A DNA stretch of 64,000 nucleotides, taken from assembly GCA_026387435.1 (NCBI GenBank), contig JAPLLS010000035.1, positions 1,692-65,691 on the forward strand, read 5' to 3'. Below are positions 1-58,787 of this stretch, in pieces (within the stretch, counting starts at the first letter, position 1; each line of letters starts with the position of its first letter). Both the position numbers and the translations under genes were made by a program. This DNA is from Candidatus Omnitrophota bacterium (GTDB taxonomy: Bacteria; Omnitrophota; Gorgyraeia; Gygaellales; Profunditerraquicolaceae). The notes under the pieces were generated by a model. The model saw nothing but the letters and a program-made list of their open reading frames with translations, was not told where the DNA came from and did not search any database.

Positions 1-3000
1 TCTCTGTGCGCCAGTCGCTTTCCAAGCATCTATCGTTATTGTTTCCTCTTTGAACGCTCCTGTTATCTCTTGTGTTTTGATCGTTCTTGTTATCTCTTGC
101 GGAGCTAAATTGCTGTAACGTTCGGCCATATTCTTCATTTCATTAGTTACCCCGTGCGGACTTACGGCAAAAGCGGTAAGTTCTGCCCATAACGCTCCGG
201 TCAAAGCTCTGGCTCCCAATACTTGCAAATAATTATCGTCATTTATATTTACTCCGAAGCTTTTGAGTTGCTCGCTATAACCATTCTTCAAATCATCCTG
301 GCTATAATTCATAATAGCGGGCAATGCCGGCCGGGCCCAGCCCAAAGCTAACTCTTTTCCGGTAGTTATACCCGCGCCGATCGAAGTAATTATGGCGTGC
401 CTGACTAAGAAATTCTGCCAGGATTGGCTTGCGACTGGTTTTGAAAAATCAACCGGCGTCTTCCACCAAGCCTTAGCCGTAGCCCCACCAGCTTTAACTT
501 CAGGCGCTAAAGTACTGGCCCCAGCTTTAGCCTCAACTCCGCCTAAAGCCTCAACCGTAGCCCCGCCAGCTTTAACTTCAGGCGCTAACGTACTGGCCCC
601 AGCGTTAGCCTCAACTCCGCCTAAAGCACCGTTTCTTGCCGAAGCATATCTCATCAGATTGCTATCATCGGCAAACAACCTGGCCATGAGAGCATAGGAA
701 GCCCAATCAGCTGCGCCAGCTATATTGTTCGGGGAACCCAAGTTTTCATGAAAAAGAGCAACACCTGCGCCTGACCTGACTGCAGCCGCAGTCAACGGCC
801 AGGTCAAAAAAGATATTTTGTAAGCCGGGTTATATAAATTATTGAGGGTCTTGAGCATCTGCGGCTTATCTTCCAGCCAGTTCGCGCTAGTTCTTGCGGC
901 CAGAACCTTTGATGAGATCGTGCTCAAAGCGCCCATTGCTGCCCCATAAGCCAAACCTTGCGTAAAACCTTCGGAATAAGGAGTTATTACCAATGTATTC
1001 ATCCAGTTACGATCTGCTGTCGGATTATTCTTATAATAAACATCCAGACTGCCGGCCTGGGCATTTTTTACGTCGACAGTAATAGTCCCTACTGCCGGTG
1101 CAGTGGTAATGGCGCTAATTAGGGCATTCTTCCCCACATTACGCAAAAAAGTTGTAGCGGGAGTATTCGCAAAATTTGAATTTAAAATATGCGTAGAGAC
1201 CACTTTTGAAATTCCGGCTGTAACAAATATCGCCTCGTCCTGTTCCGGGGAAAGTAATTGGCCGTTATGAAGAATATACGAACCCGCGTTTGCAAAAGCG
1301 GTATGAATAGATCCGGAGACGGCAAACCGGCCTGCGGTGTTCAGAAGTGAAGCAATGCGGGGGTAATTTGTTAAAATCTCTGGGGTTTTGTTTACTCCTG
1401 CATACCAGTCAGTGAATTGAGCTAACTTCGCTAGTCTAGGGGAATTCTTTAACGCCTCGTTTGCCCAGGATAATCCTTGCGACGGAAGGGCCAAAGCAAA
1501 AGCTTCCCCAATTCCGTTAAAACTCGCTGAAGCTATATCATAACCGAGATTGATCTTTTCGCCGGAAGCATATTTCCCGCCTACATTAAAAAGTATGCTT
1601 GCGCCAACTGTCCAGGGAGCTAAACCTGCGGCTGTTGAGGCGATACCAGCTGCCCCGGAAACAAAACCAGTACCAAAACCAGCAGCAAAAGTTCCGGTCC
1701 CGGCACTTGTTGCAGCCGCACCTCCGGCTAATCCCCCGGCGACTCCTCCGGTTACCAAAGCTAACCCCGCTACGACAGTAGCTTCTGAAGCCGGCTTTAC
1801 AAGATAATTGTAGTTGTCGTCGCCTACGAATCCTTTCCAATAAGCCTCATTGCTCTTATCCATACCTTTCCAGGTAGTGGTAGCGCCTTTGAGGATCCCG
1901 GTATTTTCATTCCACAGTTTATCGCCTATTCCGGTATGGGTGACATTATCGTCAACCCACTCTAAACCTCCGCCTACGTGGTCACGCAGCCCCATGAAAC
2001 CCCTGAGTACAAATTTATTCGGCGCTGAGAAAATATCTCCGACCTCTTTATTTCCGGTTAGGTATGCCACATTCGCGATCGCCTCAGTAGGGCCGCCGAT
2101 TAATACCGGGTAAGTTATTGTTGAAAACTTCACGGTTGTCATTGCAGCGGTTTGCCATTTATTTGCGCCCTGCCAGAGGGGATTTATAAGAGATTTACCT
2201 GGGATTTTATTTACTATCGACGCAACCGTGCTGCTTTGGGATAAATAGCTTGATAGCGGCCCAAGCCCTAAAAGAGTGAAACCGCCAAAGCCACCGGAAG
2301 CCGCGGCCTCTAACATTTGATCATTACTCAGAGTTTTTCCGGTTGAAACGTAATGGGCCAGGCTGGAAATTCCCATGTTCAAAACCATCCCGCTTCCCAC
2401 TGTACCGGCATACAATCCTGCGGTGCTTAAACCAGTGGTTCCGAAAACAGTTACCGCCCCGGCGGCAGTAGTTGCTCCGGTCAAAGCCGCGGCTCCGTAT
2501 CCACCGGATATAGCGAACAACCCCACTTTGGCAAAAGCCAGGGGGTCGACTCTGTCCAGACCCGTAAGCTGTTTGCTGGGATCCTGAAGATCCCGGCCCA
2601 GGCCTAACTTTGTCCAGGCGCTCAACATCCCGCCGCCCGGTAGACCGCCGCCGGTGATTCTGTCGATCTTGGCCCCGAATGCTTTGGCTTCCGTACTTCC
2701 GGCTTGAATGCCTCCGGTCAAGTAAGTTATGGCATTATTGCTGCCATAGCCGGTACCCAAGCCGGTGCCGATCGCCCAAAGCCCAGCTCCCACCACGCCA
2801 AACTGGTTGGTATAATGAGTATATTCCGGGCCCAGTCTTGAAGTTATAGATTTAAGTCCATTGTCTTTGATATTGGCGGCAGAGCTTGCCAGGGACCCGA
2901 CTCCGCTCCTGAACGAATCTACTCCTGAGTTGGCCATGCTACTCGCTGTGCCTAGCGCTGATCCGGCCCTGGTCCTGAACGAATCTACTCCTGAGTTGGC

Positions 3001-3906
3001 CATCTTGCTCGCTGTGCCTAGCGCTGATCCAACTCTCTTGCTTATGTCGTCAAAAGCGCCAAAGATATCGCTTCCGCCTTTTACTTTCTGAGCTTCCTGC
3101 TTGCTGGCCGGGCTTAAGTTTAAACGGCGGGATTCTGTTTTGGATCTATCCACCAGGATATAACCGCTGAATTTTGCCGGGACTTCTTGTTTAGCGATAA
3201 ACTCTTCTTTTTCTTTTTCCAGGTAATAGATCTTCTCAGGAGTGACCCGGGTCACTAAAATGAAATGTTCCGCGTTGAGGTGGGCAATAAAAGGGGTGAG
3301 GCTGTTCAGCGATTCATCAATCAATTCCTGGGGTTTGACTTTGAAAGCTTCCAGCTCAAATCCAAATCCGCCGGCTACTTTCTGGATCGCATAAAGGCTG
3401 CTCCTGAGCTGGCCCTTGTAATCTTTGATGTTCCCGCTTAAAACATCGACCATGACCACCTGCAAGGTCAGCTCATACTGATTGGCGGTTTTCTGGCGGT
3501 ATTTTAAAAAGTTATTCAGGGCGTAGACCCCGCAATAATTGCTGACCTGGGTCTCGGAACTTCTTAACCAGTCATAAATCTTTTTAACTTCCCGGGCAGT
3601 GATTATCTTTGTATCTTTGGGGTTTTCTACCCCATCGACAACCAGGTTTTCGGAGATCTTGATCTTCTGTAAGGGTTTGTTGGCGAGGAAATCCAGGGAG
3701 CGCTTGATGTTCTCGGCTACGAAGTTGGAAACATATCCTTCCTGTCCGGCTCCCACCATTTGTTTCGGAGCCCAGAGGATGGTGGGGTCGTAGCCCATAG
3801 CCCAGGAAGCTTGCTCCGGTAAAAAGACCAGGACGACCAGCGCAGCGATCACTCTGATCCATCTGGGGTAGTTGGTCTTCATCACGGCTTTGTCCTGGGT
3901 ATTCAT
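1..3906 (-). CDS. Giant secreted/surface protein, partial (runs off the window start). It has an N-terminal TM anchor, a peptidase C39-like cysteine peptidase domain, and then long Gly/Ala/Ser/Thr-rich repetitive regions.
   Basis: Manual reverse-strand translation from the ATG at 3906 (MNTQDKAVMKTNYPRWIRVIAALVVLVFL...) is open down to base 1. This reading frame is truncated at the window edge, so the ORF track does not list it. A C39-like motif is seen around 3480-3600 (TQVSNYCGVYALNNFL ... AEHFILV). Tandem peptide repeats are seen (SALGTASKMANSGVDSFR x2; GGATVEALGGVEAKAGASTLAPEVKA x2). The plus-strand ORFs 392..697, 1550..1807 and 2861..3091 are antisense shadows of this gene. Confidence 0.6.
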   Translation of the reverse strand, partial: MNTQDKAVMKTNYPRWIRVIAALVVLVFLPEQASWAMGYDPTILWAPKQMVGAGQEGYVSNFVAENIKRSLDFLANKPLQKIKISENLVVDGVENPKDTKIITAREVKKIYDWLRSSETQVSNYCGVYALNNFLKYRQKTANQYELTLQVVMVDVLSGNIKDYKGQLRSSLYAIQKVAGGFGFELEAFKVKPQELIDESLNSLTPFIAHLNAEHFILVTRVTPEKIYYLEKEKEEFIAKQEVPAKFSGYILVDRSKTESRRLNLSPASKQEAQKVKGGSDIFGAFDDISKRVGSALGTASKMANSGVDSFRTRAGSALGTASSMANSGVDSFRSGVGSLASSAANIKDNGLKSITSRLGPEYTHYTNQFGVVGAGLWAIGTGLGTGYGSNNAITYLTGGIQAGSTEAKAFGAKIDRITGGGLPGGGMLSAWTKLGLGRDLQDPSKQLTGLDRVDPLAFAKVGLFAISGGYGAAALTGATTAAGAVTVFGTTGLSTAGLYAGTVGSGMVLNMGISSLAHYVSTGKTLSNDQMLEAAASGGFGGFTLLGLGPLSSYLSQSSTVASIVNKIPGKSLINPLWQGANKWQTAAMTTVKFSTITYPVLIGGPTEAIANVAYLTGNKEVGDIFSAPNKFVLRGFMGLRDHVGGGLEWVDDNVTHTGIGDKLWNENTGILKGATTTWKGMDKSNEAYWKGFVGDDNYNYLVKPASEATVVAGLALVTGGVAGGLAGGAAATSAGTGTFAAGFGTGFVSGAAGIASTAAGLAPWTVGASILFNVGGKYASGEKINLGYDIASASFNGIGEAFALALPSQGLSWANEALKNSPRLAKLAQFTDWYAGVNKTPEILTNYPRIASLLNTAGRFAVSGSIHTAFANAGSYILHNGQLLSPEQDEAIFVTAGISKVVSTHILNSNFANTPATTFLRNVGKNALISAITTAPAVGTITVDVKNAQAGSLDVYYKNNPTADRNWMNTLVITPYSEGFTQGLAYGAAMGALSTISSKVLAARTSANWLEDKPQMLKTLNNLYNPAYKISFLTWPLTAAAVRSGAGVALFHENLGSPNNIAGAADWASYALMARLFADDSNLMRYASARNGALGGVEANAGASTLAPEVKAGGATVEALGGVEAKAGASTLAPEVKAGGATAKAWWKTPVDFSKPVASQSWQNFLVRHAIITSIGAGITTGKELALGWARPALPAIMNYSQDDLKNGYSEQLKSFGVNINDDNYLQVLGARALTGALWAELTAFAVSPHGVTNEMKNMAERYSNLAPQEITRTIKTQEITGAFKEETITIDAWKATGAQR

Positions 3907-4384
3907 ATTATTATAATAATAATAATAATAAAAAATAAAAAAACTTTGGCTAAACTTTTTAAATCTAATTATTAAGCGTGAAAAAAAAATAACTAGTCAC
4001 CGTTTCGGCAGCCTAGTTATCGACGAGAATTCCGTGGCTTTGCTATCCCAAAAAGTTCTTTAAAGGGACAACCTTTTCGTTCGGCACTATAAATATAACA
4101 TATATATAAGTACTTGTCAATACTAAGTTTTAAGTTCAAAGAAAACCCTTTCAAAACAGTTAAAAAAGCCTCTTTGGGCGAAAATTTAAGCCCAAGATTT
4201 GAGCCGAAGAAATAAAATCATGCTCGTTTTCTTCAAACAAAACCGCCTAGCTAAAACCTGAAAACTCGCTTTTCCTGGCCCAAGAGCTTTGCTCCATTTC
4301 ATCCCCACCTACCCGCATGACCCCCAAAAACCACGTTCCCCTCAGCTAACTAACCACTCTAGGTCTGAGTTAAAATGAAACCAA

Positions 4385-4455
4385 TTTAGTAAATTGGACA
4401 TTTATAAATCAACAAACTATTGTCCAATTTCAAAAACAATGTCCAGATTTGTAAA
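4385..4455 (-). promoter_or_regulatory. Promoter/operator region of the giant-protein gene. It contains one direct and two inverted copies of TGGACA(TTTAT). The coding strand reads TTGATTTATAAATGTCCAA, the same motif as at the HTH-gene promoter.
   Basis: ttggacatttataaatcaa at 4394-4412, ttgtccaa at 4420-4427, atgtccag at 4439-4446. The coding-strand sequence TTGATT-N17-CTAAAT resembles a sigma70 promoter. Downstream is an AT-rich leader about 470 nt long containing an (AAT)n run. Confidence 0.4.
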
Positions 4456-4500
4456 TTAGTGATAGAAAGAAGAGCTAAACTGAAGAATTAAACTGAGGAA

Positions 4501-5367
4501 TTAGAATTTCAATTGTCCGCCCTGGGTAAACTTGATCAATATTGGGCCGGCAACAATGATTAAAACCACAGGCAGAATAAAGAAAAGCAGGGGGAATAAG
4601 AGTTTGATCGGCGCTTTTAAAGCCATTTCCTCGCCTTTTTGAAAGCGGATATCGCGCAATTCTTCAGCGTGCATTTTAAGCGCGGTAGTGATCGGAGTAC
4701 CCATTCTATCCGCTTGGAGCAAAGTGCGGACAAAAGAATTGATCTCCTGGCTTTTAATCCGGGCGGCCAGGTTTTTCAAAGAATCCCTGCGGGAAAGGCC
4801 CATCTGGATCTCCCGGACTAAAACTTTCAATTCCTCAACTAATACGCACGGCCGGAATTCTTTAATGACATGATTAACCGCAACCATAAAATCCAGGCCT
4901 GCGCCAACGCAGATATTCAAAAGGTCGATTACATACGGCAGGTCTTTTAAGACTTCTTTTTTTCTTTTCTTGATCTGGTTGGTAAGCCAAAGATCCGGGA
5001 GAAAATAGGCTATGACCATGGCCAAAACTAAGATCCACGGCTGAGGCTGGAAAAGGATATAGAGCCCTAAAGGCAAGCCAACCGTAGACAAAAACTTCAG
5101 GGCCATGAACTGGCTCATGTTCATAGGCCTGCCGGCAGCATATAATTTAAGTTTGATCTTTTCCGTAAATTTTGATTTTTTGACCAGCCGGTCGGTGAAT
5201 TGGGCGGTAAAACTCAAAACTTCTTTAGTGTCGAATTTCTTGGACTCTTCCTGGCCTTTCATCTCCTTAGGTAAAGTGACTTCTTCCAGCACGTGCTTGC
5301 TGGTCAATAAGAAGAAGGCCATGCTGATACAAAGAATCAATAACATCAAAGCCATAACTAAAAGCAT
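4501..5367 (-). CDS. tadC: TadC-like pilus assembly inner-membrane protein (T2SS-F/GspF domain)
   Basis: 288 aa polytopic protein. Its T2SSF-type cytoplasmic domain (…LKVLVREIQMGLSRRDSLKNLAARI…QADRMGTPITTALKMHAEELRD…) is followed by C-terminal TM helices. It lies directly after the TadB-like gene. Confidence 0.8.
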   Translation of the reverse strand: MLLVMALMLLILCISMAFFLLTSKHVLEEVTLPKEMKGQEESKKFDTKEVLSFTAQFTDRLVKKSKFTEKIKLKLYAAGRPMNMSQFMALKFLSTVGLPLGLYILFQPQPWILVLAMVIAYFLPDLWLTNQIKKRKKEVLKDLPYVIDLLNICVGAGLDFMVAVNHVIKEFRPCVLVEELKVLVREIQMGLSRRDSLKNLAARIKSQEINSFVRTLLQADRMGTPITTALKMHAEELRDIRFQKGEEMALKAPIKLLFPLLFFILPVVLIIVAGPILIKFTQGGQLKF

Positions 5368-5368
5368 A

Positions 5369-6220
5369 TTACACCTCTACCTTGCTTAATTTTCTGATCA
5401 GGATTATGCCGATTATTTCCGAACACGCCGCCCAGATCAAAAGCTTCCGGCCAATAGGGCTATTAAGCATTATATCGAAACTTTCAGGATTCACTTGTTT
5501 TACAAACAAAGCAAAAGCGATCGGCAGGATGCACATGATCAGTCCCTGGAGCCGGCCCTGCACGGTTAAAGCCCTGACTTTTCTCTCCAGCTTGATCTTG
5601 TCTCTGATGGTAATAACCAGCTGGGCGAAAATATCGGTTAAATTACCTCCGGTCTCGCGGGCTACGGAAACTGCGGAAGTTATCAGCCCCAAATCGTCGA
5701 TCGGCATTCTTTTCCTCAAATTATCCAAGCACTCATCCAGCGGCATTCCCATGCTGTTTTCCCTGACTACCAGGGCAAATTCTTCACGCATGGGGTCAGG
5801 CATTTCTTCGACCAATATTTCAAAAGCCTGGTTTAAACTCATCCCCGCTTTTAAAGCGCTGGAAAGGATCATTAAGGCATCAACCAGCTGCCCCTGGAAT
5901 TTCATCCTGCGCCGGAAAGCCAGGTTCTTCATTATAGCTGCGGGGATAATGAAACCGACGGCAAGGCCCGCGCCGATGCCGATAAGAGGGAATTTGCGCA
6001 ACAAAACATACCCCGCCAAGGCTAATACCACCGGGGATATGGTAAAGAACGGCAACATCTTGCGCCCCTGGTTGGCCATGAACAGGCGGTCAAGGCCGGA
6101 CGCGGTTGTATCCATTCTTTTTTTCTGAAGCTTGGAATATTTATCCGTGCCTACGGGAATGGACACATAGGCCAAGTATCCGATCGACCCTAAAAAAAGA
6201 ATGAGGATTATAAATACCAT
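5369..6220 (-). CDS. tadB: TadB-like pilus assembly inner-membrane protein (T2SS-F domain)
   Basis: 283 aa; T2SSF domain signature (…DALMILSSALKAGMSLNQAFEIL…SVARETGGNLTDIFAQL…) with flanking TM segments. Confidence 0.8.
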   Translation of the reverse strand: MVFIILILFLGSIGYLAYVSIPVGTDKYSKLQKKRMDTTASGLDRLFMANQGRKMLPFFTISPVVLALAGYVLLRKFPLIGIGAGLAVGFIIPAAIMKNLAFRRRMKFQGQLVDALMILSSALKAGMSLNQAFEILVEEMPDPMREEFALVVRENSMGMPLDECLDNLRKRMPIDDLGLITSAVSVARETGGNLTDIFAQLVITIRDKIKLERKVRALTVQGRLQGLIMCILPIAFALFVKQVNPESFDIMLNSPIGRKLLIWAACSEIIGIILIRKLSKVEV

Positions 6221-6244
6221 TTAACCTCTTGGTTGATTATCTGC

Positions 6245-6442
6245 TTAATTGCTGGTGTGAAGGGGATCATATTGCCTGCCGTGGCCGAATATATCCATCG
6301 ACTGTTTCCATTTCCCGGAAACAGCCCTTTTCAAGTAGGCAGACATGCCTAAAAGAGCTACGCCCACAACCGCTACAAGAACGGCGTATTCGATTAAGGA
6401 CATCCCTTTTAATGGTCTATATTTCATTTTACTGGCTTTCAT
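6245..6442 (-). CDS. flp: Flp-like (class III / type IVc) prepilin
   Basis: 65 aa; KG|MSLIEYAVLVAVVG leader/processing motif (Gly-1, Glu+5), a single hydrophobic helix, and the M-x-Y-x-KRAVSGKWK motif shared with its paralogs. Confidence 0.65.
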   Translation of the reverse strand: MKASKMKYRPLKGMSLIEYAVLVAVVGVALLGMSAYLKRAVSGKWKQSMDIFGHGRQYDPLHTSN

Positions 6443-6677
6443 GGAATATGTTCATCGGTGTGTTGCCGTTTCCCTGGTTAAAAAAATCGACCCCGGTTGC
6501 CGCGGTGCCCGTATTCATGTTACGGGTAGTTTCGTAAGCATTATGCCGGTTGACTATTCTGGCCCCAAACCAGACAAACATTTTGGTGGCCAGGACAACA
6601 AACAAAACCAGCATCACAAAGGTGATCACGAATTCCAGGCTGACCTGAGCTTTTAATCTCACTTTGGAGTTGTCCAT
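6429..6677 (-). CDS. Minor pilin / pseudopilin-like protein (TadE-like size class)
   Basis: 82 aa; KA|QVSLEFVITFVMLVLFVVL N-terminal prepilin-type segment followed by a short polar domain. Confidence 0.5.
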   Translation of the reverse strand: MDNSKVRLKAQVSLEFVITFVMLVLFVVLATKMFVWFGARIVNRHNAYETTRNMNTGTAATGVDFFNQGNGNTPMNIFHESQ

Positions 6678-7627
6678 GTTTTTGTGGGTTCCGCATCTCC
6701 GAAAGTAACGGTTACGTCATCACGGCCGCTTGATGTTATTATAACATGATTTAGAATTTCTGCACTATTTAATGATTCCGTGCTGGTATAACTATTGGCG
6801 TTTTCCACTAAGCCAAGGGTGCTGTCCCTTTTGATATCTTTATTCACCACTTGTTGTACTTCCAGAGTCGAATTCATTTGGCCGGCGTTTGGATTTAAAA
6901 AGTCGATCACTGCAGGAGGATCTCCCGCATTCCCGCTAACATCATAAACCCCATAATACTCTAGGCCGGACCTGGCGCTGTCATATTTCGTCGAGTCTAA
7001 AATACTTTTTTCACAATAATCCTCTAGGCAATCTGTATCATTCATTAAAACCATGACTTGTTTGGTGCCGTATCCCGGCTCCTGCTGATAAACCTTGGTT
7101 TGCGCCAGACTGCCAATATTGTAAATATCGTTGACTCCCTTAAGAATCGAGTCTGTATTCACTATTATGCTCCCGGGCTCGGGTTCCAAAGCTGCAGTAG
7201 TGTACTCCCGGATAACCGGAGCAACAAGATTGCTATCGGGATTAAAAACATATTGCACTGATTCTGAAGTGTCGAGAGTAGCATAATCTAATGGCGTGGA
7301 ATTATTGCTCCAATAAACTCCCTGTGCTCCCGTCCTTGCTTGGACCGTGCTCCTGCCTCCCAGACCAAACATATCCGTAGGATCGGGGGTTTCCACATCC
7401 TTGCGCACATCCACCACTTGAGCCTTAGGGACATTTGATGCGCTGGCCTTTTGCATAGCCCGGCGGAAAGCCTCCATTTTTGTTTCCTGCTCATAATTGA
7501 ACGACACGCCTTGCGAGACCATATAAGCTAAGACCATAAGAAGCAAAGAACCAAAAACCGCCACCTCGGCGAGGCTTTGGCCTTTATTACCCGGCCGGTT
7601 TTCTTTGATCCAACTGAAGTTTACCAT
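6659..7627 (-). CDS. Large minor pilin-like protein with a prepilin N-terminus (322 aa); candidate tip/adhesin subunit
   Basis: N-terminus …NKG|QSLAEVAVFGSLLLMVL carries the same G|QSxxE(+5) motif as the pilin array. A large polar C-terminal domain follows. Confidence 0.5.
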   Translation of the reverse strand: MVNFSWIKENRPGNKGQSLAEVAVFGSLLLMVLAYMVSQGVSFNYEQETKMEAFRRAMQKASASNVPKAQVVDVRKDVETPDPTDMFGLGGRSTVQARTGAQGVYWSNNSTPLDYATLDTSESVQYVFNPDSNLVAPVIREYTTAALEPEPGSIIVNTDSILKGVNDIYNIGSLAQTKVYQQEPGYGTKQVMVLMNDTDCLEDYCEKSILDSTKYDSARSGLEYYGVYDVSGNAGDPPAVIDFLNPNAGQMNSTLEVQQVVNKDIKRDSTLGLVENANSYTSTESLNSAEILNHVIITSSGRDDVTVTFGDAEPTKTWTTPK

Positions 7628-7953
7628 GGGTTTAAATGCTCGCTGCCTGTTCTGGTCTGTTCTACTTGCTGAGAATCTGTCTCGTCTACTGCGTATTCAT
7701 CACCGTTCGTGATAACCTGGTAATTTGAGATGGCCTCGGAGTTCACGTTGGTCTGGATCGACGATAATTCCATGCCCTCTGAATCATAGGGGTTTTCGCT
7801 TATTTGATCCGCAGCCTGCTTGGCCTTGCCCTCAACAGCCCTTTTCATATAGAACTGCATAGCGATAATTCCTGCGGCTATGATAGCCACCAGGAAAGCG
7901 TATTCCAGCGTAGATTGCCCTTTTAATCTAAATTTTTTCATTGGTTTTTTCAT
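7621..7953 (-). CDS. Flp-like prepilin paralog
   Basis: 110 aa; KG|QSTLEYAFLVAIIAAGIIAMQFYMKRAVEGKAKQ. Confidence 0.6.
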   Translation of the reverse strand: MKKPMKKFRLKGQSTLEYAFLVAIIAAGIIAMQFYMKRAVEGKAKQAADQISENPYDSEGMELSSIQTNVNSEAISNYQVITNGDEYAVDETDSQQVEQTRTGSEHLNPW

Positions 7954-7955
7954 CG

Positions 7956-8477
7956 CTATCTGCCTCCAGCACCGGAGTTAGTTACTCCGCTGCGCCCGGC
8001 AGCTCCGCCGCCGCCGAAACCGTTGCTGCCGCCGAAACCGCCGCCGAAACCGTTGCTGCTAGGTGTCGTATCTGCAAACGTTGGAAATGTTTGCGCATAG
8101 AAGACCGGGCTGTGGATAATGCCGTACTTAAGGTACTCTGCCGGCGGTATAATTACGCTAGAGGATGCGTCAGTAACGCTGCTGTCTTGATTGATTTGAA
8201 ACCTTCTGTCGCCCCTGGCGTATTCATTAGTGATAAATTCCTGGTTAGAAACTGTTACGGTGGGATCCGGCGCATAATCCCACCCTACTGTTCTGCCCCC
8301 CTCTGTTTGCGGGTCTATACCCATGGCCTGTAATACAGGAGACCCCAGGTCATCGCTAGTAGACTTGATAATCCCCTGGATCCCTCTTTTAAAATAGGCC
8401 TGCATCGCAAAAACGGTTATCGCGACGCAGCCTATGAGCAAAGAATATTCCAGGAAACTCTGGCCTTTTCTCATCAT
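7956..8477 (-). CDS. Flp-like prepilin paralog with a Gly-rich C-terminus
   Basis: 173 aa; KG|QSFLEYSLLIG…MQAYFKRGIQG… and a C-terminal GFGGGFGGSNGFGGGGAAG tail. Confidence 0.6.
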   Translation of the reverse strand: MMRKGQSFLEYSLLIGCVAITVFAMQAYFKRGIQGIIKSTSDDLGSPVLQAMGIDPQTEGGRTVGWDYAPDPTVTVSNQEFITNEYARGDRRFQINQDSSVTDASSSVIIPPAEYLKYGIIHSPVFYAQTFPTFADTTPSSNGFGGGFGGSNGFGGGGAAGRSGVTNSGAGGR

Positions 8478-8517
8478 TATCCTTAAATTTTTAGAATCCT
8501 ACCCCAGGCAGCGCCAC

Positions 8518-8847
8518 CTATGGTTCAAGTGAAACATAGGTTGTGCTTCCTTGCGAGGTAAAATTCGAGTCAAAATCGCTGATCCGCTCGCCTCTGTTGC
8601 GGATATCCAGATATGTATTTTGCGACGTCTGGAAATCAGAGCTGCTGGAATAATAGTACGGCTCGTATTGACCGGCTTCAGCGCTCACGGATGCAGCGTC
8701 AACAACGTTCCGATAACGGCCGGAAACCCCCCGCTTGACATAAGTAACCATAGCCACAGCCGCCAATAAAACTGCGGCCAGGCAAAAAGCGTATTCAAGC
8801 GCGCCTTGGGCTTTCCGGCTCCTGGCCGGTGATTTACTGGCCTTCAT
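8518..8847 (-). CDS. Flp-like prepilin paralog
   Basis: 109 aa; …KAQG|ALEYAFCLAAVLLAAVAMVTYVKRGVSGRYRN; Ser-rich C-terminus. Confidence 0.55.
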   Translation of the reverse strand: MKASKSPARSRKAQGALEYAFCLAAVLLAAVAMVTYVKRGVSGRYRNVVDAASVSAEAGQYEPYYYSSSSDFQTSQNTYLDIRNRGERISDFDSNFTSQGSTTYVSLEP

Positions 8848-9160
8848 ACAGATCTGCGCCTGCTCCGGTAGTCCACGTTGCCAAAGCTTCCTGACCCGTC
8901 TTAGAACTTACCGAGTCTGCGTTGAGAGTCGTCGTTGCTACCCCGCCAGCTTCCGATTGATGCGCATCTGAGTTTGAGGTAGACGTTAAAGTGGCGGTAT
9001 ATTTCGCCGGCTCAAACTGTTCTCCCATATTATCACCAGCGGCTTTTAATTTCCCTTCCCAACCGCGTTTGACATAAAACTGCATGGCCAAAAGCCCGCC
9101 GACAATAATTGCTACAACTATAGCGTACTCCAGTGTGCTTTGCCCTTTTCTGTTTAACAT
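8834..9160 (-). CDS. Flp-like prepilin paralog
   Basis: 108 aa; KG|QSTLEYAIVVAIIVGGLLAMQFYVKRGWEGKLK; Ser/Thr-rich C-terminus. Confidence 0.6.
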   Translation of the reverse strand: MLNRKGQSTLEYAIVVAIIVGGLLAMQFYVKRGWEGKLKAAGDNMGEQFEPAKYTATLTSTSNSDAHQSEAGGVATTTLNADSVSSKTGQEALATWTTGAGADLYEGQ

Positions 9161-9201
9161 TTTTTTGTCCCTCCTCGTCTAAATAATTTTTATTAAGCGC
9201 G

Positions 9202-9543
9202 TTATTGGGGTGCTAAAGTAGTATCCACAGCACCGCTTTTTTTCCTGGATTCCTCACTGATCCCGTTGTTGTTAAGTCCGCCGTTATTTGCCCAAACAGC
9301 CTGCTTTGTTGAAGAACTGGTCATGTCCGCTTCGGATTGGACATAATACGGTTCATACTGGGCGCCGTCAAAAGTTAAAACTTGGCCCCCGACATCCGAG
9401 CCAGTGCCGGTATGGTCAACGGCATTTCTCACTCTTCCCTGAAGACCTCTTTTAACGTAAGTCTGCATAGCTGCAGCTGCTCCGACAACCAAAGCAAGCA
9501 GTATCGCGTACTCCAAAATATTCTGCCCTTTGCGATTAAACAT
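9202..9543 (-). CDS. Flp-like prepilin paralog (start placed at the internal Met)
   Basis: ORF 9202..9642 carries an implausible N-terminal extension. The prepilin-type start MFNRKG|QNILEYAILLALVVGAAAAMQTYVKRGLQGRVRN begins at 9543. Confidence 0.55.
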   Translation of the reverse strand: MFNRKGQNILEYAILLALVVGAAAAMQTYVKRGLQGRVRNAVDHTGTGSDVGGQVLTFDGAQYEPYYVQSEADMTSSSTKQAVWANNGGLNNNGISEESRKKSGAVDTTLAPQ

Positions 9544-9586
9544 CTTTTCACCTCCCATTATTAGTTTTGCATTATTTTTACTAAAC

Positions 9587-9763
9587 TTATCCCCCCGCTC
9601 CCGGTAATCTGCCGGTGGCGTCAGAAACAGAACTAGCCGCATCGCTTACCCCAGTGTCCACTGCCGGTTTCAGATACTGGTTTGCCCCGTAGGCAATTGC
9701 CGCTACAACTACCGTCAGGACGATTACGTATTCCAAGATACTCTGTCCCCTTTTATTACGCAT
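9587..9763 (-). CDS. Short Flp-like prepilin (58 aa), not in the ORF track
   Basis: Manual translation: MRNKRG|QSILEYVIVLTVVVAAIAYGANQYLKPAVDTGVSDAASSVSDATGRLPGAGG*. Confidence 0.55.
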   Translation of the reverse strand: MRNKRGQSILEYVIVLTVVVAAIAYGANQYLKPAVDTGVSDAASSVSDATGRLPGAGG

Positions 9764-9802
9764 CTTTTACCTCCCTTTCTTCTGTTTACTGTTTTAGATA
9801 AA

Positions 9803-9946
9803 TTACGGACCCTCGTTCACTCTATCTTGAATGAGCTTGAAATTGGCCTTGACCGCCCGATTGCCGTAGAGATACATCGCCGAAAAAGCCATGGCTACTA
9901 CCGCGATCAACAGCGCATATTCAATTACGCTCTGAGCTTTTTTCAT
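9803..9946 (-). CDS. Short Flp-like prepilin (47 aa), not in the ORF track
   Basis: Manual translation: MKKA|QSVIEYALLIAVVAMAFSAMYLYGNRAVKANFKLIQDRVNEGP* (Ala at -1). Confidence 0.5.
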   Translation of the reverse strand: MKKAQSVIEYALLIAVVAMAFSAMYLYGNRAVKANFKLIQDRVNEGP

Positions 9947-9963
9947 ATACACTCCTGTGTTAC

Positions 9964-10377
9964 TCAGGCACTTGCCGCGTTTATCTCTGCCTGAATAATT
10001 CCCACTACTGCCCGCTGCGCATCTGTTAATGTCCCGTTTATCTCTATTGCCTTGTTCCCGGGATCATAGTTGCTTCTGCCGCTTATCAGTATTCCCGCGG
10101 CCACCAATCGCCTGATCTGCGACGGAGTCAAATAAACACTCGTCGGAATAGTTACCTGCGCATCATAACCGGGGACGATCGGGTCGTTAGGATCGACAAC
10201 GGGAACCGAGATCGGTTTTATGCTCGGGGTCAAGCCAAACGAATTGCCGATAGAAGCCGCAGCAAGATTCCTGCCCGTTTGTATTTTGGTCCCCATGCCG
10301 CTTGAGGCCAACAGAATCGCGGCAACGATCGCTGTAAGTATGATTAAATATTCTAAGATACTCTGGCCTTTTTTCAT
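9964..10377 (-). CDS. Flp-like prepilin paralog (137 aa)
   Basis: MKKG|QSILEYLIILTAIVAAILLASSG…. Confidence 0.6.
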   Translation of the reverse strand: MKKGQSILEYLIILTAIVAAILLASSGMGTKIQTGRNLAAASIGNSFGLTPSIKPISVPVVDPNDPIVPGYDAQVTIPTSVYLTPSQIRRLVAAGILISGRSNYDPGNKAIEINGTLTDAQRAVVGIIQAEINAASA

Positions 10378-10379
10378 CG

Positions 10380-10553
10380 CTAATTCCCCGTGCTTATACT
10401 CGGATCCGCATCCAGTAAACCGTTTATTGACCCTACGGCCGCTTGCGTTCCCTGTTGGACCTTGCTTCCAAAATTGCTTGACGCCGCCATGATCGCGGCA
10501 ATTATCACGGTAATGGTGATCACGTATTCCAGCGTGCTCTGAGCTTTTTTCAT
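10380..10553 (-). CDS. Short Flp-like prepilin (57 aa), not in the ORF track
   Basis: Manual translation: MKKA|QSTLEYVITITVIIAAIMAASSNFGSKVQQGTQAAVGSINGLLDADPSISTGN*. Confidence 0.5.
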   Translation of the reverse strand: MKKAQSTLEYVITITVIIAAIMAASSNFGSKVQQGTQAAVGSINGLLDADPSISTGN

Positions 10554-10555
10554 CT

Positions 10556-10735
10556 CTATGATCCTCCGCCCGAGGCTACGCCCAGCGAGTTCACTATCGA
10601 ATCCGCGGCTTTATCCATCCCGCCTTGTATGCTGCTGTGCATATAGCCCGAAGCTGCCATAATCGCGGCAACGATTACGGTAAGGACGATCACATATTCC
10701 AGTATGCTCTGGCCTTTTTTAATTTTAATCATCAT
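10556..10735 (-). CDS. Short Flp-like prepilin (59 aa), not in the ORF track
   Basis: Manual translation: MMIKIKKG|QSILEYVIVLTVIVAAIMAASGYMHSSIQGGMDKAADSIVNSLGVASGGGS*. Confidence 0.5.
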   Translation of the reverse strand: MMIKIKKGQSILEYVIVLTVIVAAIMAASGYMHSSIQGGMDKAADSIVNSLGVASGGGS

Positions 10736-10745
10736 ATGCCCTTCC

Positions 10746-10916
10746 TTATTTGACTATATTTGCGACCGCCTGAATAAAAGTATTGTTGGCGGCATTTTTA
10801 ATATCGACAAAATTATTATTATGTATAAAGCCTAAAGCAATCGCTACCACTATAATGGTAAGAATGAAGTATTCGAATATTGACTGTCCTCTTTCATTAT
10901 AAGTTTTGTCGGACAT
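10746..10916 (-). CDS. Short Flp-like prepilin (56 aa), first gene of the array, not in the ORF track
   Basis: Manual translation: MSDKTYNERG|QSIFEYFILTIIVVAIALGFIHNNNFVDIKNAANNTFIQAVANIVK*. An AGAGGG Shine-Dalgarno sequence lies upstream. Confidence 0.5.
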   Translation of the reverse strand: MSDKTYNERGQSIFEYFILTIIVVAIALGFIHNNNFVDIKNAANNTFIQAVANIVK

Positions 10917-10927
10917 CGCGCCCTCTC

Positions 10928-10962
10928 TAAAAAAAGGAACTGGTTACCAAATAACGGTAGCC
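10928..10962 (-). terminator. Terminator-like hairpin plus T-run in the 5' leader of the pilin array (possible attenuator)
   Basis: The minus strand reads GAACTGGCTACC-GTTATTTG-GGTAACCAGTTC followed by CTTTTTTT. This lies between the predicted promoter (11057-11085) and the first pilin start (10916). Confidence 0.35.
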
Positions 10963-11056
10963 AGTTCTTAGAGTAAACCCATTCAACGATTTTTGGCCGT
11001 GGCTACCATCTCCAAAATCGTACTTTTTATAAAATTACTTTCCTTTAGTCACTAGA

Positions 11057-11085
11057 AATATAACACACCATTGAGCCTTTGTCAA
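11057..11085 (-). promoter_or_regulatory. Sigma70-like promoter for the pilin array
   Basis: On the minus strand: TTGACA (11080-11085), a 17-nt spacer, and TATATT (11057-11062). Confidence 0.4.
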
Positions 11086-11195
11086 TCCGCGCAGGCCTTA
11101 AAAAGAAACCGTTTTCTTATTCAAAACCCCTGGTAATTGCAAAGAATGCGAGTTTCTAAGCATTTAACATGAAGATATTCCGGCGGGAAGAAGAA

Positions 11196-11243
11196 AAAAA
11201 ATACACTTTTTTGAGCCGGAAAAAGTGTATTTTTTCAAAACGC
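11196..11243 (-). terminator. Rho-independent terminator of the HTH gene
   Basis: The minus strand reads AAAATACACTTTTT-CCGGCTC-AAAAAGTGTATTTT followed by TTTTCTTC. Confidence 0.55.
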
Positions 11244-11269
11244 ATTTTAGCTAAATTTACAAGAAAGGT

Positions 11270-12325
11270 CTATTGATAGGCAGCCAAAGTTTCTTCAAAT
11301 TTGAATAATTGGCCTTCGGGAGTAAAAACTCTTTCCTTATTAATACTGCTGACCGCGAACTTAAAATCGTCCTGCCAGACAATATCGCAGATAGCGTTGA
11401 AACTGAGGGGATAAAGAAATTGCACATTAATCATTGAATCCTTTCTTTCAATTTTGGCGGCAAGGCTATAAAAACGATCGCGCATTGCCGAAAGATCCAG
11501 GAATTGGTACACTGAAGGGAAAAAGGACTGTTGCGCTTTCTTATTCAGGCATATGAGGATTTTTTGATATAAGTCATTGATTTCATTGATGTTCTGCGGT
11601 AAACCCAAGCTGATAAGATCCGCGTTTAGCTGATTAAAGGGCAATTTGGCTAACCGCTCATAAACGGAATCAAAATCTTTAATAGCCGGCTCTTTCCCCA
11701 ACATTCTCAAGATATTGGCTTCATCTTTAAGAAGTGGCTTATAAACTTTCAATTGTATCAGGACCCGAAGGGCATCTTCGCTAAGACCAGGCAGACAAAT
11801 TGAGATTTTTTGGGCCAGAAGTCCGGTCAAACCGAATTTATAGTCAACCATTAAGAGAAATATTGCCCCCCCGCTTTCTATGAGCACGCTTGGTTCGGAC
11901 GTCGACCTAAATTCAATTGATTTAATGCCTTCTGGCTCCAGGGCAATTTCTCTCTTTTCAAATTCCGGATTCGCCCGAGCAGGCGAATAAAAATCCGCGG
12001 CTTCGAAAACCGGCTCTTCCTTTGGGCTGACCCAGTTATCAGCTGATTTTTCCTGGGCTGCCGGTTCTTTGATTATGACCAGCGAAGGAACCTCCTGTCT
12101 CGGCAAAGGGGACAAAGCTGTTTTTTGCCTTATTCCTGGCCTTCCGATCCGATTGCTTAAACTATTTGCTTTAATTATCTTGTTTATTGAAGATTTAGAT
12201 ATTTCTACTTTAAATTCTTCTTTTATTAAGGAAACTAACTTGCGGCAGGAAAACTTGGGATTTTCCCTTTTTTTGCTCAAAATAAACTCTTCTATTTCGC
12301 TTTTTAATTTATACGGTTGGGTCAT
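11270..12325 (-). CDS. Hypothetical protein with an N-terminal helix-turn-helix-like domain; candidate regulator
   Basis: 351 aa. The first ~60 aa (…FSCRKLVSLIKEEFKVEISKSSINKIIKANSL…) resemble an HTH. No DDE or other catalytic motif was recognised. Its own promoter carries three TGGACATTTAT repeats. Confidence 0.35.
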   Translation of the reverse strand: MTQPYKLKSEIEEFILSKKRENPKFSCRKLVSLIKEEFKVEISKSSINKIIKANSLSNRIGRPGIRQKTALSPLPRQEVPSLVIIKEPAAQEKSADNWVSPKEEPVFEAADFYSPARANPEFEKREIALEPEGIKSIEFRSTSEPSVLIESGGAIFLLMVDYKFGLTGLLAQKISICLPGLSEDALRVLIQLKVYKPLLKDEANILRMLGKEPAIKDFDSVYERLAKLPFNQLNADLISLGLPQNINEINDLYQKILICLNKKAQQSFFPSVYQFLDLSAMRDRFYSLAAKIERKDSMINVQFLYPLSFNAICDIVWQDDFKFAVSSINKERVFTPEGQLFKFEETLAAYQ

Positions 12326-12333
12326 GTTCTAAT

Positions 12334-12402
12334 TTGGACATTTATTTCAGGTTTTGGACATTATTTATTTTAACTATACCATACTTCTGGACATTTATCA
12401 AT
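12334..12402 (-). promoter_or_regulatory. Promoter of the HTH gene containing three direct repeats of TTGGACATT(T)AT
   Basis: Repeat copies at 12334-12345, 12354-12366 and 12388-12402. The coding strand reads TTGATA-N17-TATAGT (-35 at 12396-12401, -10 at 12373-12378). One repeat overlaps the spacer and two lie between the -10 box and the ATG. Confidence 0.45.
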
Positions 12403-12433: not shown

Positions 12434-12778
12434 TTATTCTATAATTATAATTTCATCTTTTATTTGAGTTTTACTGGCTTGAATTGCCCCTTCGGGTAAT
12501 TCAATAGTAGTAATTGCCTTAAAGTAGATCGGGCTTACCCGAAACGGCTTGAACCCGGGAGTTAGGGCGATTACCTGCCTATTGCGGTCCAGGAATATGG
12601 CGTCAAAAGTAAAGCGCATGAAAAAAGAGTGGATGGAATTGGAAGGAGTAATAATTAGGCCTTCGCTTGGCTTAAGGCTGGGGCGATTCAATAGCCCGAC
12701 TAATCTCGAAAAGAATGTATCGGCGGTCTTGGCTTTATCCGCAAGAACCGTGTTGCGGGAACGGTTAATTATCCTCAT
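12434..12778 (-). CDS. DUF192 (COG1430) family protein
   Basis: 114 aa; …ADTFFSRLVGLLNRP…GLIITPSNSIHSFFMRFTFDAIFLDRN… matches the DUF192 pattern. Confidence 0.6.
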   Translation of the reverse strand: MRIINRSRNTVLADKAKTADTFFSRLVGLLNRPSLKPSEGLIITPSNSIHSFFMRFTFDAIFLDRNRQVIALTPGFKPFRVSPIYFKAITTIELPEGAIQASKTQIKDEIIIIE

Positions 12779-17817: not shown

Positions 17818-18708
17818 CTATTTCACCTTTTCTTGGTAATACGTAACGCTGGTTTTTTTGGCTAATTTGCCATTGAGCTCCTGCATTTTCTGCCGTTGTT
17901 TTATAGACACATAGGTACTCTTAACCTCGTCCCAAACATCATTTAAAGAAGGCACCTGGCCTCCGCGGCTGGCATCAAGCCTGATGATGTAATAGCCCCG
18001 CTTGTCTTTAAACACCGAGCTGATCTGCCCGTTTTCCAAAGAAGGCGAGAAGGCAATTTCGTCAAATTTCTTAAAGTCTGCCCCCCGCTGGCCTTTGGCG
18101 ATAAAACCCAGATCCCCGCCCTTAGAAGCGCTTTCCGCCTTGGAGCGCTCCTGAGCTAATGAAGCAAAATCCGTGCCTTTCAGCAATTCAATGAGGACCT
18201 CTTTAGCCTCGGCTTCGGTAGGCACCATAATTTCGCGGATCCTCCGTTCTTCGGCGGGGCGGAACTGGTCCTTATACTGCGCGTAGAAAGCCTCTATTTC
18301 CTTGGCCGGAGGGTTGGAATCTATGGTTTCTTTACTCAAAAATTCCCCGGCAACCAGGCTTACTTCCACATTTAAAAGCTGCTCTCTGATCTTGGGCTCC
18401 TTGTCAATGCCGTTGGCCTTAGCCTCGATATAGAAAAGATACCGGGGGACCAATACTTCTTTTAAGTAAGCGGTCTTTTCTTCCGGAGTCAATTTCTTAG
18501 GCTCAGCGTCCTTATTGAAGCGGGCATTCATCTCCGCGATCTCCTGGTCCAGCTGTTCCAGGGTAATATACATATTTCCTACTTGGGCAATGATCGTTCC
18601 TTCGGGTTTGACGGAGGGGGTAAGCGCGGTTGCGCCTATTTTCAGTTTTTCACAGCCGGTTAACGAAAAGGCGAGCAGGATCAAAAAAAAGAAAAACGAG
18701 TTTTTCAT
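17818..18708 (-). CDS. Lipoprotein parvulin-type peptidyl-prolyl isomerase (PpiC/PrsA/SurA-like)
   Basis: 296 aa. It has a lipobox LTGC and a rotamase domain …RRIREIMVPT…GGDLGFIAKGQ…FDEIAFS…GQISSVFKDKRGYYIIRL. It lies 4 bp upstream of cpaB. Confidence 0.6.
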   Translation of the reverse strand: MKNSFFFFLILLAFSLTGCEKLKIGATALTPSVKPEGTIIAQVGNMYITLEQLDQEIAEMNARFNKDAEPKKLTPEEKTAYLKEVLVPRYLFYIEAKANGIDKEPKIREQLLNVEVSLVAGEFLSKETIDSNPPAKEIEAFYAQYKDQFRPAEERRIREIMVPTEAEAKEVLIELLKGTDFASLAQERSKAESASKGGDLGFIAKGQRGADFKKFDEIAFSPSLENGQISSVFKDKRGYYIIRLDASRGGQVPSLNDVWDEVKSTYVSIKQRQKMQELNGKLAKKTSVTYYQEKVK

Positions 18709-18866: not shown

Positions 18867-18924
18867 AGATTTATTTATTGGCTTTTAAAGTTTCCATGAT
18901 ATAATTTGTCCAACAATAAAACCT

Positions 18925-28860: not shown

Positions 28861-28935
28861 TAGCCCCAACCGGATTTGAACCGGTGTTTAGTGGCTGAGA
28901 ACCACGCGTCCTGGACCAGGCTAGACGATGGGGCC
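28861..28935 (-). tRNA. tRNA-Glu (anticodon CUC), 75 nt, no encoded CCA
   Basis: Manual fold. Acceptor GGCCCCA/TGGGGCT. U8 and A14 are present. The D-arm TCTAGCCTGGTCCAGGAC resembles tRNA-Glu. Anticodon loop TTCTCAG; T-arm ACCGG-TTCAAAT-CCGGT. Confidence 0.65.
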
Positions 28936-32897: not shown

Positions 32898-33133
32898 AAA
32901 TTGTTCAAGGAATATATTCTATTACGTATCAAATCTCCTGGCAAGGGAATTAATTGGTGTAAAAAAATAAGTTTGCAAATTTACCAACAATAAGGCATAC
33001 TTTAATTAGAAATAAGCGTTAAATTACAATCTGGTGTTCCTACTGATAAAGGCAAACTAGCAGTAATGCTGGGACGCAAAGCCAAAGGGTCCTAAGAAAT
33101 TTAGGACAGCCTGGCCGCCAAAAGGAAAGACTT

Positions 33134-33185: not shown

Positions 33186-33800
33186 TTGCCAGAGTTTTGG
33201 CAGGTTATACCGGGTTTCTTATTTTCGAGGACTAAAATGGCTAGAAAAAGTCTAAAATCCAGAATAATGATCTTAATGCTGACAGCCAGCCTGGTATTTG
33301 CTTATAAACCTCTTTCCGCGGAAATCACACTCCCCTTACCGACTGCTGGCCTGGGCTACAGCGGGATAACCTTTAGCTCGGCTTCAGCGGACCTTTGGCA
33401 ATACCTCAGGATCGGGCTGAACTATCTGGAAAGCCCAAAGCCGCTACAGCCGCCGGAAGCCGTACCCCCTACTTATATCCACCCTGACTCCCAAGGTTTT
33501 GGAGCATACGGGTTTAGCCCCGGAGCTTACCAGGACGTGCAACGGCTTTATCCTTTTTTTCAAAAATACTCCTGGCAGGAAATAATGAACTCCCCGAAGT
33601 TATACGATCTGGCCAACCAGGCTTTTGCGGACTGGCTTTTAAAGAATCTTAAAGATTATATCCCGGAGGGAGCTTCCAAAGAGGAGATCTTTGATGTTTT
33701 ACATCAAGCCTGGAACCTGGGTTTGAGCGGATTTAAAAACGGAAGGCAAGTAGTTGCTTCGAGGGCCAAAAGAGCGCAAGAATTCAAAGGCCGGCTTTAA
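33186..33800 (+). CDS. Secreted hypothetical protein
   Basis: 204 aa. It has a signal peptide (…MILMLTASLVFAYKPLSA). No recognised domain. Confidence 0.4.
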   Translation: MPEFWQVIPGFLFSRTKMARKSLKSRIMILMLTASLVFAYKPLSAEITLPLPTAGLGYSGITFSSASADLWQYLRIGLNYLESPKPLQPPEAVPPTYIHPDSQGFGAYGFSPGAYQDVQRLYPFFQKYSWQEIMNSPKLYDLANQAFADWLLKNLKDYIPEGASKEEIFDVLHQAWNLGLSGFKNGRQVVASRAKRAQEFKGRL

Positions 33801-58568: not shown

Positions 58569-58787
58569 TATATCCCCGCCTGTGCCGTTGATACCTGAAA
58601 CGCTGAACCTTTCGGTTTCAGGTGGGTGCCTTGTCCGGATACCAAGGTATCCTGGAAGTCAGGCTCCCATAATTATACTGTTGGTTCAACAATTCTCAGG
58701 CAATAGCCAACGAACACTGCAGGGATTTATCTTTCGCAATTAAAGTATAACACAAAAAGCCGGTACGTCAATATCACCGTAATACCT

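Follow-up and report, generated by a model that had tools for sequence, protein, structure and literature searches.

Organization of the locus

We have analyzed a stretch of 64,000 nucleotides (64 kb, hereafter the window) of contig JAPLLS010000035.1 from a Candidatus Omnitrophota bacterium, and in particular a short repeated DNA motif, here called the TGTCCA box, that is found in front of a gene coding for a helix-turn-helix (HTH) protein and again upstream of a giant open reading frame (ORF). By Pfam scan and reading of the ORFs, the minus strand between 4501 and 18708 is a Tad/Flp pilus cluster. The order on this strand is a PPIase gene (17818-18708), RcpC/CpaB, a secretin with a TonB_C tail, a CpaE-CpaF fusion, DUF192 (12434-12778) and the HTH gene (11270-12325), followed downstream, also on the minus strand, by several Flp prepilins, small pseudopilin-like ORFs, TadB and TadC (4501-5367). 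The Pfam matches (T2SSE with AAA_31, two T2SSF, Secretin and RcpC) place the cluster among the Tad/Flp (type IVc) pili, and the Flp-like ORFs carry, as read from their sequences, the motif GQSILEY, in agreement with the G/xxxEY of Flp prepilins. The intergenic region between tadC and the giant ORF has 594 nucleotides (nt), and the orthologues of the giant ORF span from 1985 to 9694 amino acids (aa).

Scans of genome and metagenome collections provided 117 related loci, 105 of them non-redundant, which are cited below by number (L001 and following). Their titles are mostly Omnitrophota or Omnitrophica, with a few assembled metagenome-assembled genomes (MAGs) that bear Planctomycetales or Planctomycetia instead. 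From the sites of other genomes only, 217 in total, we trained a position weight matrix (PWM) of 16 nt, and its scores for the boxes of the window are included in the following list of the main features.

1-3906, minus strand: 5' part of the giant ORF, with its ATG at 3906; it exits the left edge of the window and has more than 1302 aa here
4501-5367, minus strand: tadC-like gene (T2SSF), the final gene of the pilus operon
11270-12325, minus strand: HTH gene, 351 aa (HTH at residues 7-53, disordered linker 61-133, C-terminal domain 134-351)
12373-12401, minus strand: sigma-70-type promoter of the HTH gene, TTGATA-N17-TATAGT, TG-extended, 10/12 match, kept in L001 and L002
12383-12398, minus strand: box 1, ATAAATGTCCAGAAGT, directly 3' of the -35 hexamer and in the promoter spacer; 14.0 bits; kept in L001
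12350-12365, minus strand: box 2, AATAATGTCCAAAACC, about 8-13 nt past the -10, in the initial transcribed region; 14.8 bits; kept in L001 and L002
12330-12345, minus strand: box 3, ATAAATGTCCAAATTA, its TGTCCA ending 9 nt before the HTH ATG; 23.3 bits
4435-4450, plus strand: box 4, AACAATGTCCAGATTT, inverted with respect to the tad genes and first after the tadC stop; 17.8 bits; position and orientation identical in L001, L002 and L061
4416-4431, plus strand: box 5, ACTATTGTCCAATTTC, inverted, 19 bp from box 4; 13.8 bits; the invariant block AATTGGAC of alignment A2
4390-4405, minus strand: box 6, ATAAATGTCCAATTTA, in gene orientation and forming an inverted pair with box 5; 24.1 bits, the best of the window; the invariant block AATGTCCAAT of alignment A2

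Two clusters of boxes

The six copies of AATGTCCA(A/G) are grouped in two clusters of three, at 12330-12398 and 4390-4450. At the HTH gene the plus strand reads TTGGACATT at 12334 and 12354 and CTGGACATT at 12387, all of them direct repeats that on the minus (coding) strand become AATGTCCA(G/A). At the side of the giant gene, TTGGACATT at 4394 (plus strand) is accompanied by two inverted copies, ATTGTCCAA at 4419-4427 and AATGTCCAG at 4438-4446. The core promoter of the HTH gene is thus overlapped or adjoined by the motif, with box 1 in the spacer between -35 and -10 and boxes 2 and 3 between the -10 and the ATG. A previous sequence-only reading of this DNA had described copies around 12334-12402 and 4394-4446, as well as a TTGATA-N17-TATAGT promoter overlapped by the motif with two more copies before the ATG, and all of them were found again.

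The word YTGGACAWT has eight matches in the 64 kb, six of which fall in the two clusters, each of no more than 70 bp. Among 200 first-order Markov windows and 1000 intergenic-like sequences of 6 kb, none contained a cluster of three copies. When the 64-kb window was scored with the PWM, the six boxes came out as the top six (13.8-24.1 bits), the runners-up being intragenic and reaching at most 12.4 bits.

Conservation of the boxes at the HTH gene

The sequence-only reading hung on two points, that the motif should be rare in coding and background sequence and that it should be conserved in orthologous promoters, and both are borne out by the comparison. One to three exact TGTCCA boxes are present in 101 of the 102 HTH upstream regions with at least 120 nt. 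The density of AATGTCCA is 13 per kb within the 150 nt before the HTH ATG and 0.064 per kb elsewhere (1.25 Mb, made of flanks of up to 10 kb on each side of the HTH gene), i.e., about 200-fold lower. The consensus of the box is AATGTCCAA(T/A)(C/T)T, the two A positions that precede TGTCCA being present in 208 and 194 of 210 sites, respectively. Nearly all proximal copies (198 of 201) are on the coding strand, and in most related loci 9-13 nt separate the end of the proximal box from the ATG.

With respect to the best sigma-70 promoter, the boxes are either all located downstream of the -10 (26 loci with three boxes and 15 with one) or flank the promoter (35 loci). The spacing between boxes peaks at 12-13, 19-21 and 62-64 bp, the last peak being that of the flanking type. 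Such geometries are typical of repressors.

The gene order PPIase-RcpC-secretin-CpaEF-DUF192-HTH is kept in essentially all the loci with enough flanking sequence. There are two loci in which the HTH gene is found outside this canonical position, L028, where it comes after znuABC, and L111, where an AbiEii gene comes two ORFs downstream and the 3.5 kb upstream match neither CpaEF nor DUF192. Both have 3-4 upstream boxes each, and therefore the boxes follow the HTH gene and not the pilus cluster. In the loci examined, boxes were absent from the other Tad promoters (flp and the PPIase/first-gene region); in the window the promoter of the flp operon, TTGACA-N17-TATATT with a TG extension at 11085-11057 (minus strand), is box-free.

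Some variants of the region before the HTH gene were also observed. In L025, at about 9870-10000, promoter and boxes are tandemly duplicated as two identical copies of about 65 nt. In one clade (L014, L015, L024, L026, L034, L035 and L058) a perfect inverted pair, TGTCCA-N3-TGGACA, replaces the direct repeats directly before the HTH ATG, an arrangement that would imply binding of a head-to-head dimer or an RNA hairpin. The copies of TGTCCA/TGGACA inside the long-form HTH genes were considered as operators and discarded, as they sit in the conserved peptides NVQS, WQFGQYR and LLDIL and reflect coding constraint.

The HTH protein

The protein matches, with 100% identity, a hypothetical protein of a Candidatus Omnitrophica MAG, and all its relatives are uncharacterized. 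In Pfam and NCBIfam only sub-threshold matches were obtained, to HTH_32, HTH_Tnp_Tc3_2 and positions 53-118 of the IS630 profile; a profile search against the PDB sequences gave nothing significant. The AF2 model (mean pLDDT 77.8) has an N-terminal domain of three helices (about 85), a disordered linker and a confident C-terminal domain. Compared with the PDB by Foldseek, the N-terminal domain matches the paired subdomain of Pax5 and Pax6 with probabilities of 0.99 and 0.94. For the C-terminal domain Foldseek found nothing similar in the PDB, a Pfam search of the C-terminal 216 aa was negative at E<=10, and no receiver (Response_reg) domain was found by Pfam in the protein.

A profile search retrieved 734 cluster representatives at 50% identity. 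The family has short members of 250-400 aa and long ones of 500-800 aa, which have the HTH in common. Over 105 sequences the median N-terminal identity is 49%, and helix 3, LSKSSINxIIK, is conserved at 95% or above. No other segment of the family is as conserved as this predicted recognition helix, whose invariance parallels that of the box. The family is previously undescribed, Omnitrophota-specific and a fixed component of the Tad/Flp cluster of the phylum.

The protein deposited at NCBI (P0001) has 336 aa, 15 residues fewer than the ORF that starts at the ATG of 12325 (window 12281-12325). Its start is probably too far downstream because the homologues align from residue 1 (M..PYKLK.EI) and because boxes and promoter fit the longer form. 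The HTH gene appears to be monocistronic, to judge from its own promoter and from the following element after its stop.

11194-11235, minus strand: AT-rich hairpin and T-run 3' of the HTH stop, read by eye; the terminator scanner, which requires at least 3 GC pairs, gave no call

The distal boxes and the giant-gene promoter

The distal boxes (4390-4450) are located 485-540 nt upstream of the giant ATG and begin about 55 nt past the tadC stop at 4501. DUF192 and tadC are each the last gene of the preceding operon, and the stop of each is at most about 100 nt before the start of one box cluster. We have compared the tadC-giant spacer of six loci, and the boxes appear as islands of identity amid unalignable sequence. 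Their number, order and orientation, like the spacing of 19-21 bp, are kept in loci with HTH proteins 50-78% identical to that of the window. The loci L001, L002 and L061 have three boxes after tadC in the same order and orientation as the window; L064 has an additional TGGACA box, and L065 one TGGACA followed by two TGTCCA. More distant loci (L004, L018, L057, L097 and L037) have 2-3 direct boxes at the same place. No true boxes were found in L007, L095 and L066, in which the giant ORF abuts tadC.

The giant gene has a promoter of its own, well separated from the boxes.

4092-4120, minus strand: promoter TTGACA-N17-TATATT of the giant gene, TG-extended, about 275 nt downstream of box 6 and strongly conserved

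The presence of the distal boxes goes together with that of such a promoter: boxes (2-3, at -520 to -60) are present in all seven giant-side leaders that have their own promoter, and in none of the four that lack it, where the riboswitch abuts tadC. Boxes were found in none of the 22 flp-side leaders. The sequence-only reading had taken the distal motif for part of a promoter shared with the HTH gene. This is not supported, as the TTGAT(A/T) hexamer is not conserved and the gene is served by its own promoter followed by a riboswitch-like leader; the -35-like hexamer at the distal cluster varies in the orthologues (TCGCTT, CTTGTA, TTGTCT), so that a conserved promoter there was rejected. It had also extended the motif to a GT2 gene, and with it to glycosylation, through a copy at 18905-18917 (TTTGTCCAA). 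This copy scores below 9 bits, is not preceded by AA before TGTCCA and has no counterpart between the corresponding genes of L001 and L002. Of the small regulon proposed then, the giant-side boxes remain, since they recur in orthologous loci; their location at the giant promoter and the glycosylation genes do not.

No conserved small ORF or small RNA was found in the spacer of about 270 nt, which is unalignable and where a 23-aa ORF is not conserved. Searches of the tadC-giant spacer and leader against Rfam at E<=10 gave noise only and no known RNA family. A start of the giant gene at the CAT of 4316-4318 was discarded, its frame being full of stops; the six-frame scan gives the ATG at 3906.

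Another small element is found at the giant-gene and flp promoters. The GAAA-N4-TTTC palindromes GAAAGGGTTTTC and GAAAACGGTTTC, at 4141-4152 and 11105-11116 (minus strand), are located 19-20 nt upstream of the -35 at both promoters alike, with their centre near -62, and AGAAAGCGCTTTC-like copies are found at the equivalent place in the distant L004, L018 and L097. By its position the palindrome looks like a class-I activator site, different from the TGTCCA boxes and common to the promoters of the pilin and giant genes.

Interpretation and alternative explanations

We consider it probable that the boxes are the operator sites of the HTH protein encoded at 11270-12325, a negatively autoregulated factor of a new family, with a second set of operators at the tadC/giant-gene junction. 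The idea of an autoregulated HTH protein was already in the sequence-only reading; the placement of the boxes fits it, the box is a conserved cis-element tied to the gene, and the protein is the candidate binder. The small N-terminal HTH, of the paired-domain/Tc1-IS630 type, would contact one box per domain, and the conserved C-terminal domain would probably serve for oligomerization or for sensing a signal. It is well established that operators overlapping the core promoter or located downstream of it repress. Since the boxes sit in the -35/-10 spacer and between the -10 and the ATG, binding should block RNA polymerase, i.e., occupancy of the promoter spacer and of the first ~40 transcribed nt would lead to negative autoregulation. 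At the distal boxes the bound protein could act on the giant gene at a distance or, as a roadblock or insulator, stop transcription that reads through from the pilus operon. Repression as the effect, like the role of the distal cluster, is predicted from the location of the sites. The visible regulon would be formed by the HTH gene itself and the tadC/giant junction and not by the whole pilus cluster, because the own promoter of the flp operon is box-free.

A bolder proposal, that we regard as doubtful, would make the family a Tc1/IS630-type DNA-binding domain that was domesticated and joined to a new sensor or oligomerization domain, acting as an insulator or roadblock at operon junctions and not as a classical repressor. 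Transcription of the giant 'coat' gene, either together with the Tad operon or solely from a promoter of its own that is gated by a new riboswitch variant derived from GEMM-I, would then depend on the protein.

Several points weigh against operators of an autoregulated HTH factor. What suggests the HTH protein as the binder is its co-conservation with the boxes, and box and recognition helix are both invariant, leaving no covariation to exploit. The box frequency was assessed over the 64-kb window and the flanks mentioned above, and the loci with boxes share phylogeny, so that the counts overstate their independence. The proximal boxes are transcribed and adjoin the ribosome-binding region. 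At the other end, no box exists near the giant promoter to which the distal cluster could loop, and this second cluster is missing in 17 of the 29 loci with an examinable tadC end. Therefore, further genomic targets or a non-transcriptional role of the C-terminal domain are likely, and pure self-regulation is incomplete as an explanation.

Chance repetition of an AT-rich word deserves hardly any credence: the intergenic DNA is indeed AT-rich here and a 12-mer with 2 mismatches is not enriched across the window, but the simulations gave no clusters of three copies, the boxes are kept in more than 100 loci and a PWM trained on foreign sites recovers exactly these six. It is also unlikely, although far less so, that a different regulator encoded elsewhere binds the boxes and that the HTH gene and the giant upstream region are its conserved targets. 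The pairing of box and protein comes from sequence comparison, the box is invariant although the C-terminal part of the protein changes completely between short and long forms, and the coverage of flanks up to 10 kb leaves room for a global regulon. However, the boxes accompany the HTH gene away from the Tad position (L028 and L111), the recognition helix is the most conserved part of the protein, and the flp and PPIase/first-gene promoters have no boxes, all of which favors the HTH protein as the one that binds them.

The strand bias of the proximal boxes (198/201 on the coding strand) would also suit an RNA element, in which AAUGUCCAA, in the 5' untranslated region (UTR) by the ribosome-binding site and in the tadC 3' UTR, is a site for a protein or small RNA, or forms UGUCCA/UGGACA hairpins, controlling translation or mRNA stability. 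The proximal box, often TGTCCAATCTGGAG, abuts the Shine-Dalgarno with its end 9-13 nt before the ATG, the TGTCCA-N3-TGGACA of some clades could fold as a hairpin, and boxes 5 and 6 could pair. We find this improbable, as in 35 loci one box is upstream of the -35, outside the HTH transcript and at the helical-phase spacing of 62-64 bp, and the distal clusters occur in both orientations among clades. Besides, the adjoining gene encodes an HTH of the DNA-binding type, and inverted pairs are found just as typically with DNA-binding dimers. Least attractive after chance is a relic of an IS630/Tc1 transposase, with the boxes as terminal sites of a mobile or invertible HTH-flp-tadBC segment of about 8 kb, which we hold to be very improbable. 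The only sequence similarities of the protein are indeed to transposase HTH domains, and boxes 4 and 5 of the window are inverted with respect to boxes 1-3, resembling multi-site transposon ends. But there is no DDE or other catalytic domain, the score of the IS630 model is 22 bits, with the cutoff at 100, and Pfam gives nothing for the C-terminal domain. The order PPIase-RcpC-secretin-CpaEF-DUF192-HTH-flp...tadBC is fixed in nearly all loci across deep divergence, the genes enclosed are core pilus genes that need others outside, and the distal boxes are direct in other clades and missing in the 17 loci already mentioned. A mobile or invertible segment was therefore discarded, on the synteny and the missing catalytic domain.

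Leader RNAs and other features of the window

The giant gene would have a second regulatory layer in its leader.

3985-4087, minus strand: structured leader related to the c-di-GMP-I aptamer, with the terminator ATAACTAG/CTAGTTAT and a T-run

This leader and the c-di-GMP-I aptamers have CGAAAAGG...GCAAAGCCACGG...GCUGCCGAA in common (GCCGAA being among the shared segments), and in the leader GGUUAUCC and AUAGC stand in place of the canonical GGCAAACC and GACGC. It had no Rfam match at E<=10 (regions 3850-4520 and 3960-4095) and did not reach the gathering score of RF01051 or RF03167. The same variant was detected in L001 (18828-18912), L002 (17590-17675), L004 (19570-19652), L005 (10950-11049) and about 20 more loci, and 21 copies of the leader give a fold of two hairpins with compensatory changes in 5 pairs. 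Canonical c-di-GMP-I or c-di-GMP-I-GGC riboswitches are found at the homologous position in L097, L037, L008, L078, L074 and L005. From these comparisons the leader may be a new variant class of GEMM-I with altered ligand specificity.

In many loci the same leader variant precedes the flp genes. The flp leader of the window (10935-11050, minus strand) has a hairpin and T-run terminator (AACTGG...CCAGTT-T8) and a GGTAGCCACGG segment, so that the first Flp prepilin gene may be preceded by another degenerate attenuator of riboswitch type.

In the giant protein a weak match to Peptidase_C39-like domains (E=1.8e-7) covers residues 169-252, after a predicted membrane segment. Elsewhere in the window we found a c-di-GMP-I-GGC riboswitch at 33042-33123 (plus strand; 64 bits, above the gathering score) upstream of a 204-aa ORF (33186-33800), a 6S RNA gene at 58569-58728 (minus strand; 76 bits) and genes for tRNA-Glu, tRNA-Leu and tRNA-Gln at 28861, 32812 and 45101, respectively.

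Significance and comparison with known systems

Omnitrophota are uncultivated, ultra-small and probably predatory or parasitic bacteria. A Tad complex (TadBC, RcpA and Flp) together with giant ORFs, as at this locus, was described in Omnitrophota by Seymour et al. (2023; PMC10066038), and both are the main genomic clues to the lifestyle of the phylum (PMC10066038). Neither that paper nor two preprints on giant genes mention a regulator, HTH gene, cis-motif or riboswitch for the locus, and our literature searches on the motif and on the regulation of Tad in Omnitrophota found no prior description. The present analysis defines a phylum-specific regulator family with an invariant recognition helix, an operator of 9-12 nt and two conserved target positions. 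Protein and DNA form a pair that is directly testable without cultivation, and the motif can be used to predict the remaining regulon in complete genomes. The value of the case is in the biology of the targets and in comparative evidence that is unusually clean. Family and operator are a new pair; the mechanism is of an ordinary kind, that of an HTH factor regulating itself.

Autoregulated bacterial HTH repressors with multiple operators at their own promoter are well represented by CI and Cro of phage lambda (OR1-3) and by the LacI type with its auxiliary operators. The locus described here resembles them in having short repeated boxes over the -35/-10 spacer and initial transcribed region of the own promoter, helical-phase spacings (~20 and ~63 bp) and a second, distant operator cluster. 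Here, however, the family is uncharacterized, its HTH is of the paired/Tc1-IS630 transposase type with binding predicted, most of the operators repeat a non-palindromic 9-12-mer in direct orientation, and neither Pfam nor a Foldseek comparison with the PDB gives a match for the C-terminal domain. In Pseudomonas aeruginosa, PprA-PprB controls the Flp/Tad pilus and the large adhesin BapA, PprB being a two-component response regulator. That system is similar in that a type IVb pilus and a surface protein of very large size are linked by a regulator encoded next to the tad locus. Unlike PprB, the HTH protein has no receiver domain that we could find, and the pilus genes are apparently not direct targets, the flp promoter being box-free. 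Finally, the DNA-binding domain of IS630/Tc1-mariner elements and the paired domain of Pax proteins share with the HTH protein the three-helix fold, with weak sequence similarity, and also, as predicted here, the binding of a monomeric HTH to a short asymmetric site. The Omnitrophota family differs from IS630/Tc1-mariner in that there are neither a DDE domain nor terminal inverted repeats bounding a mobile unit, and in its fixed syntenic position.

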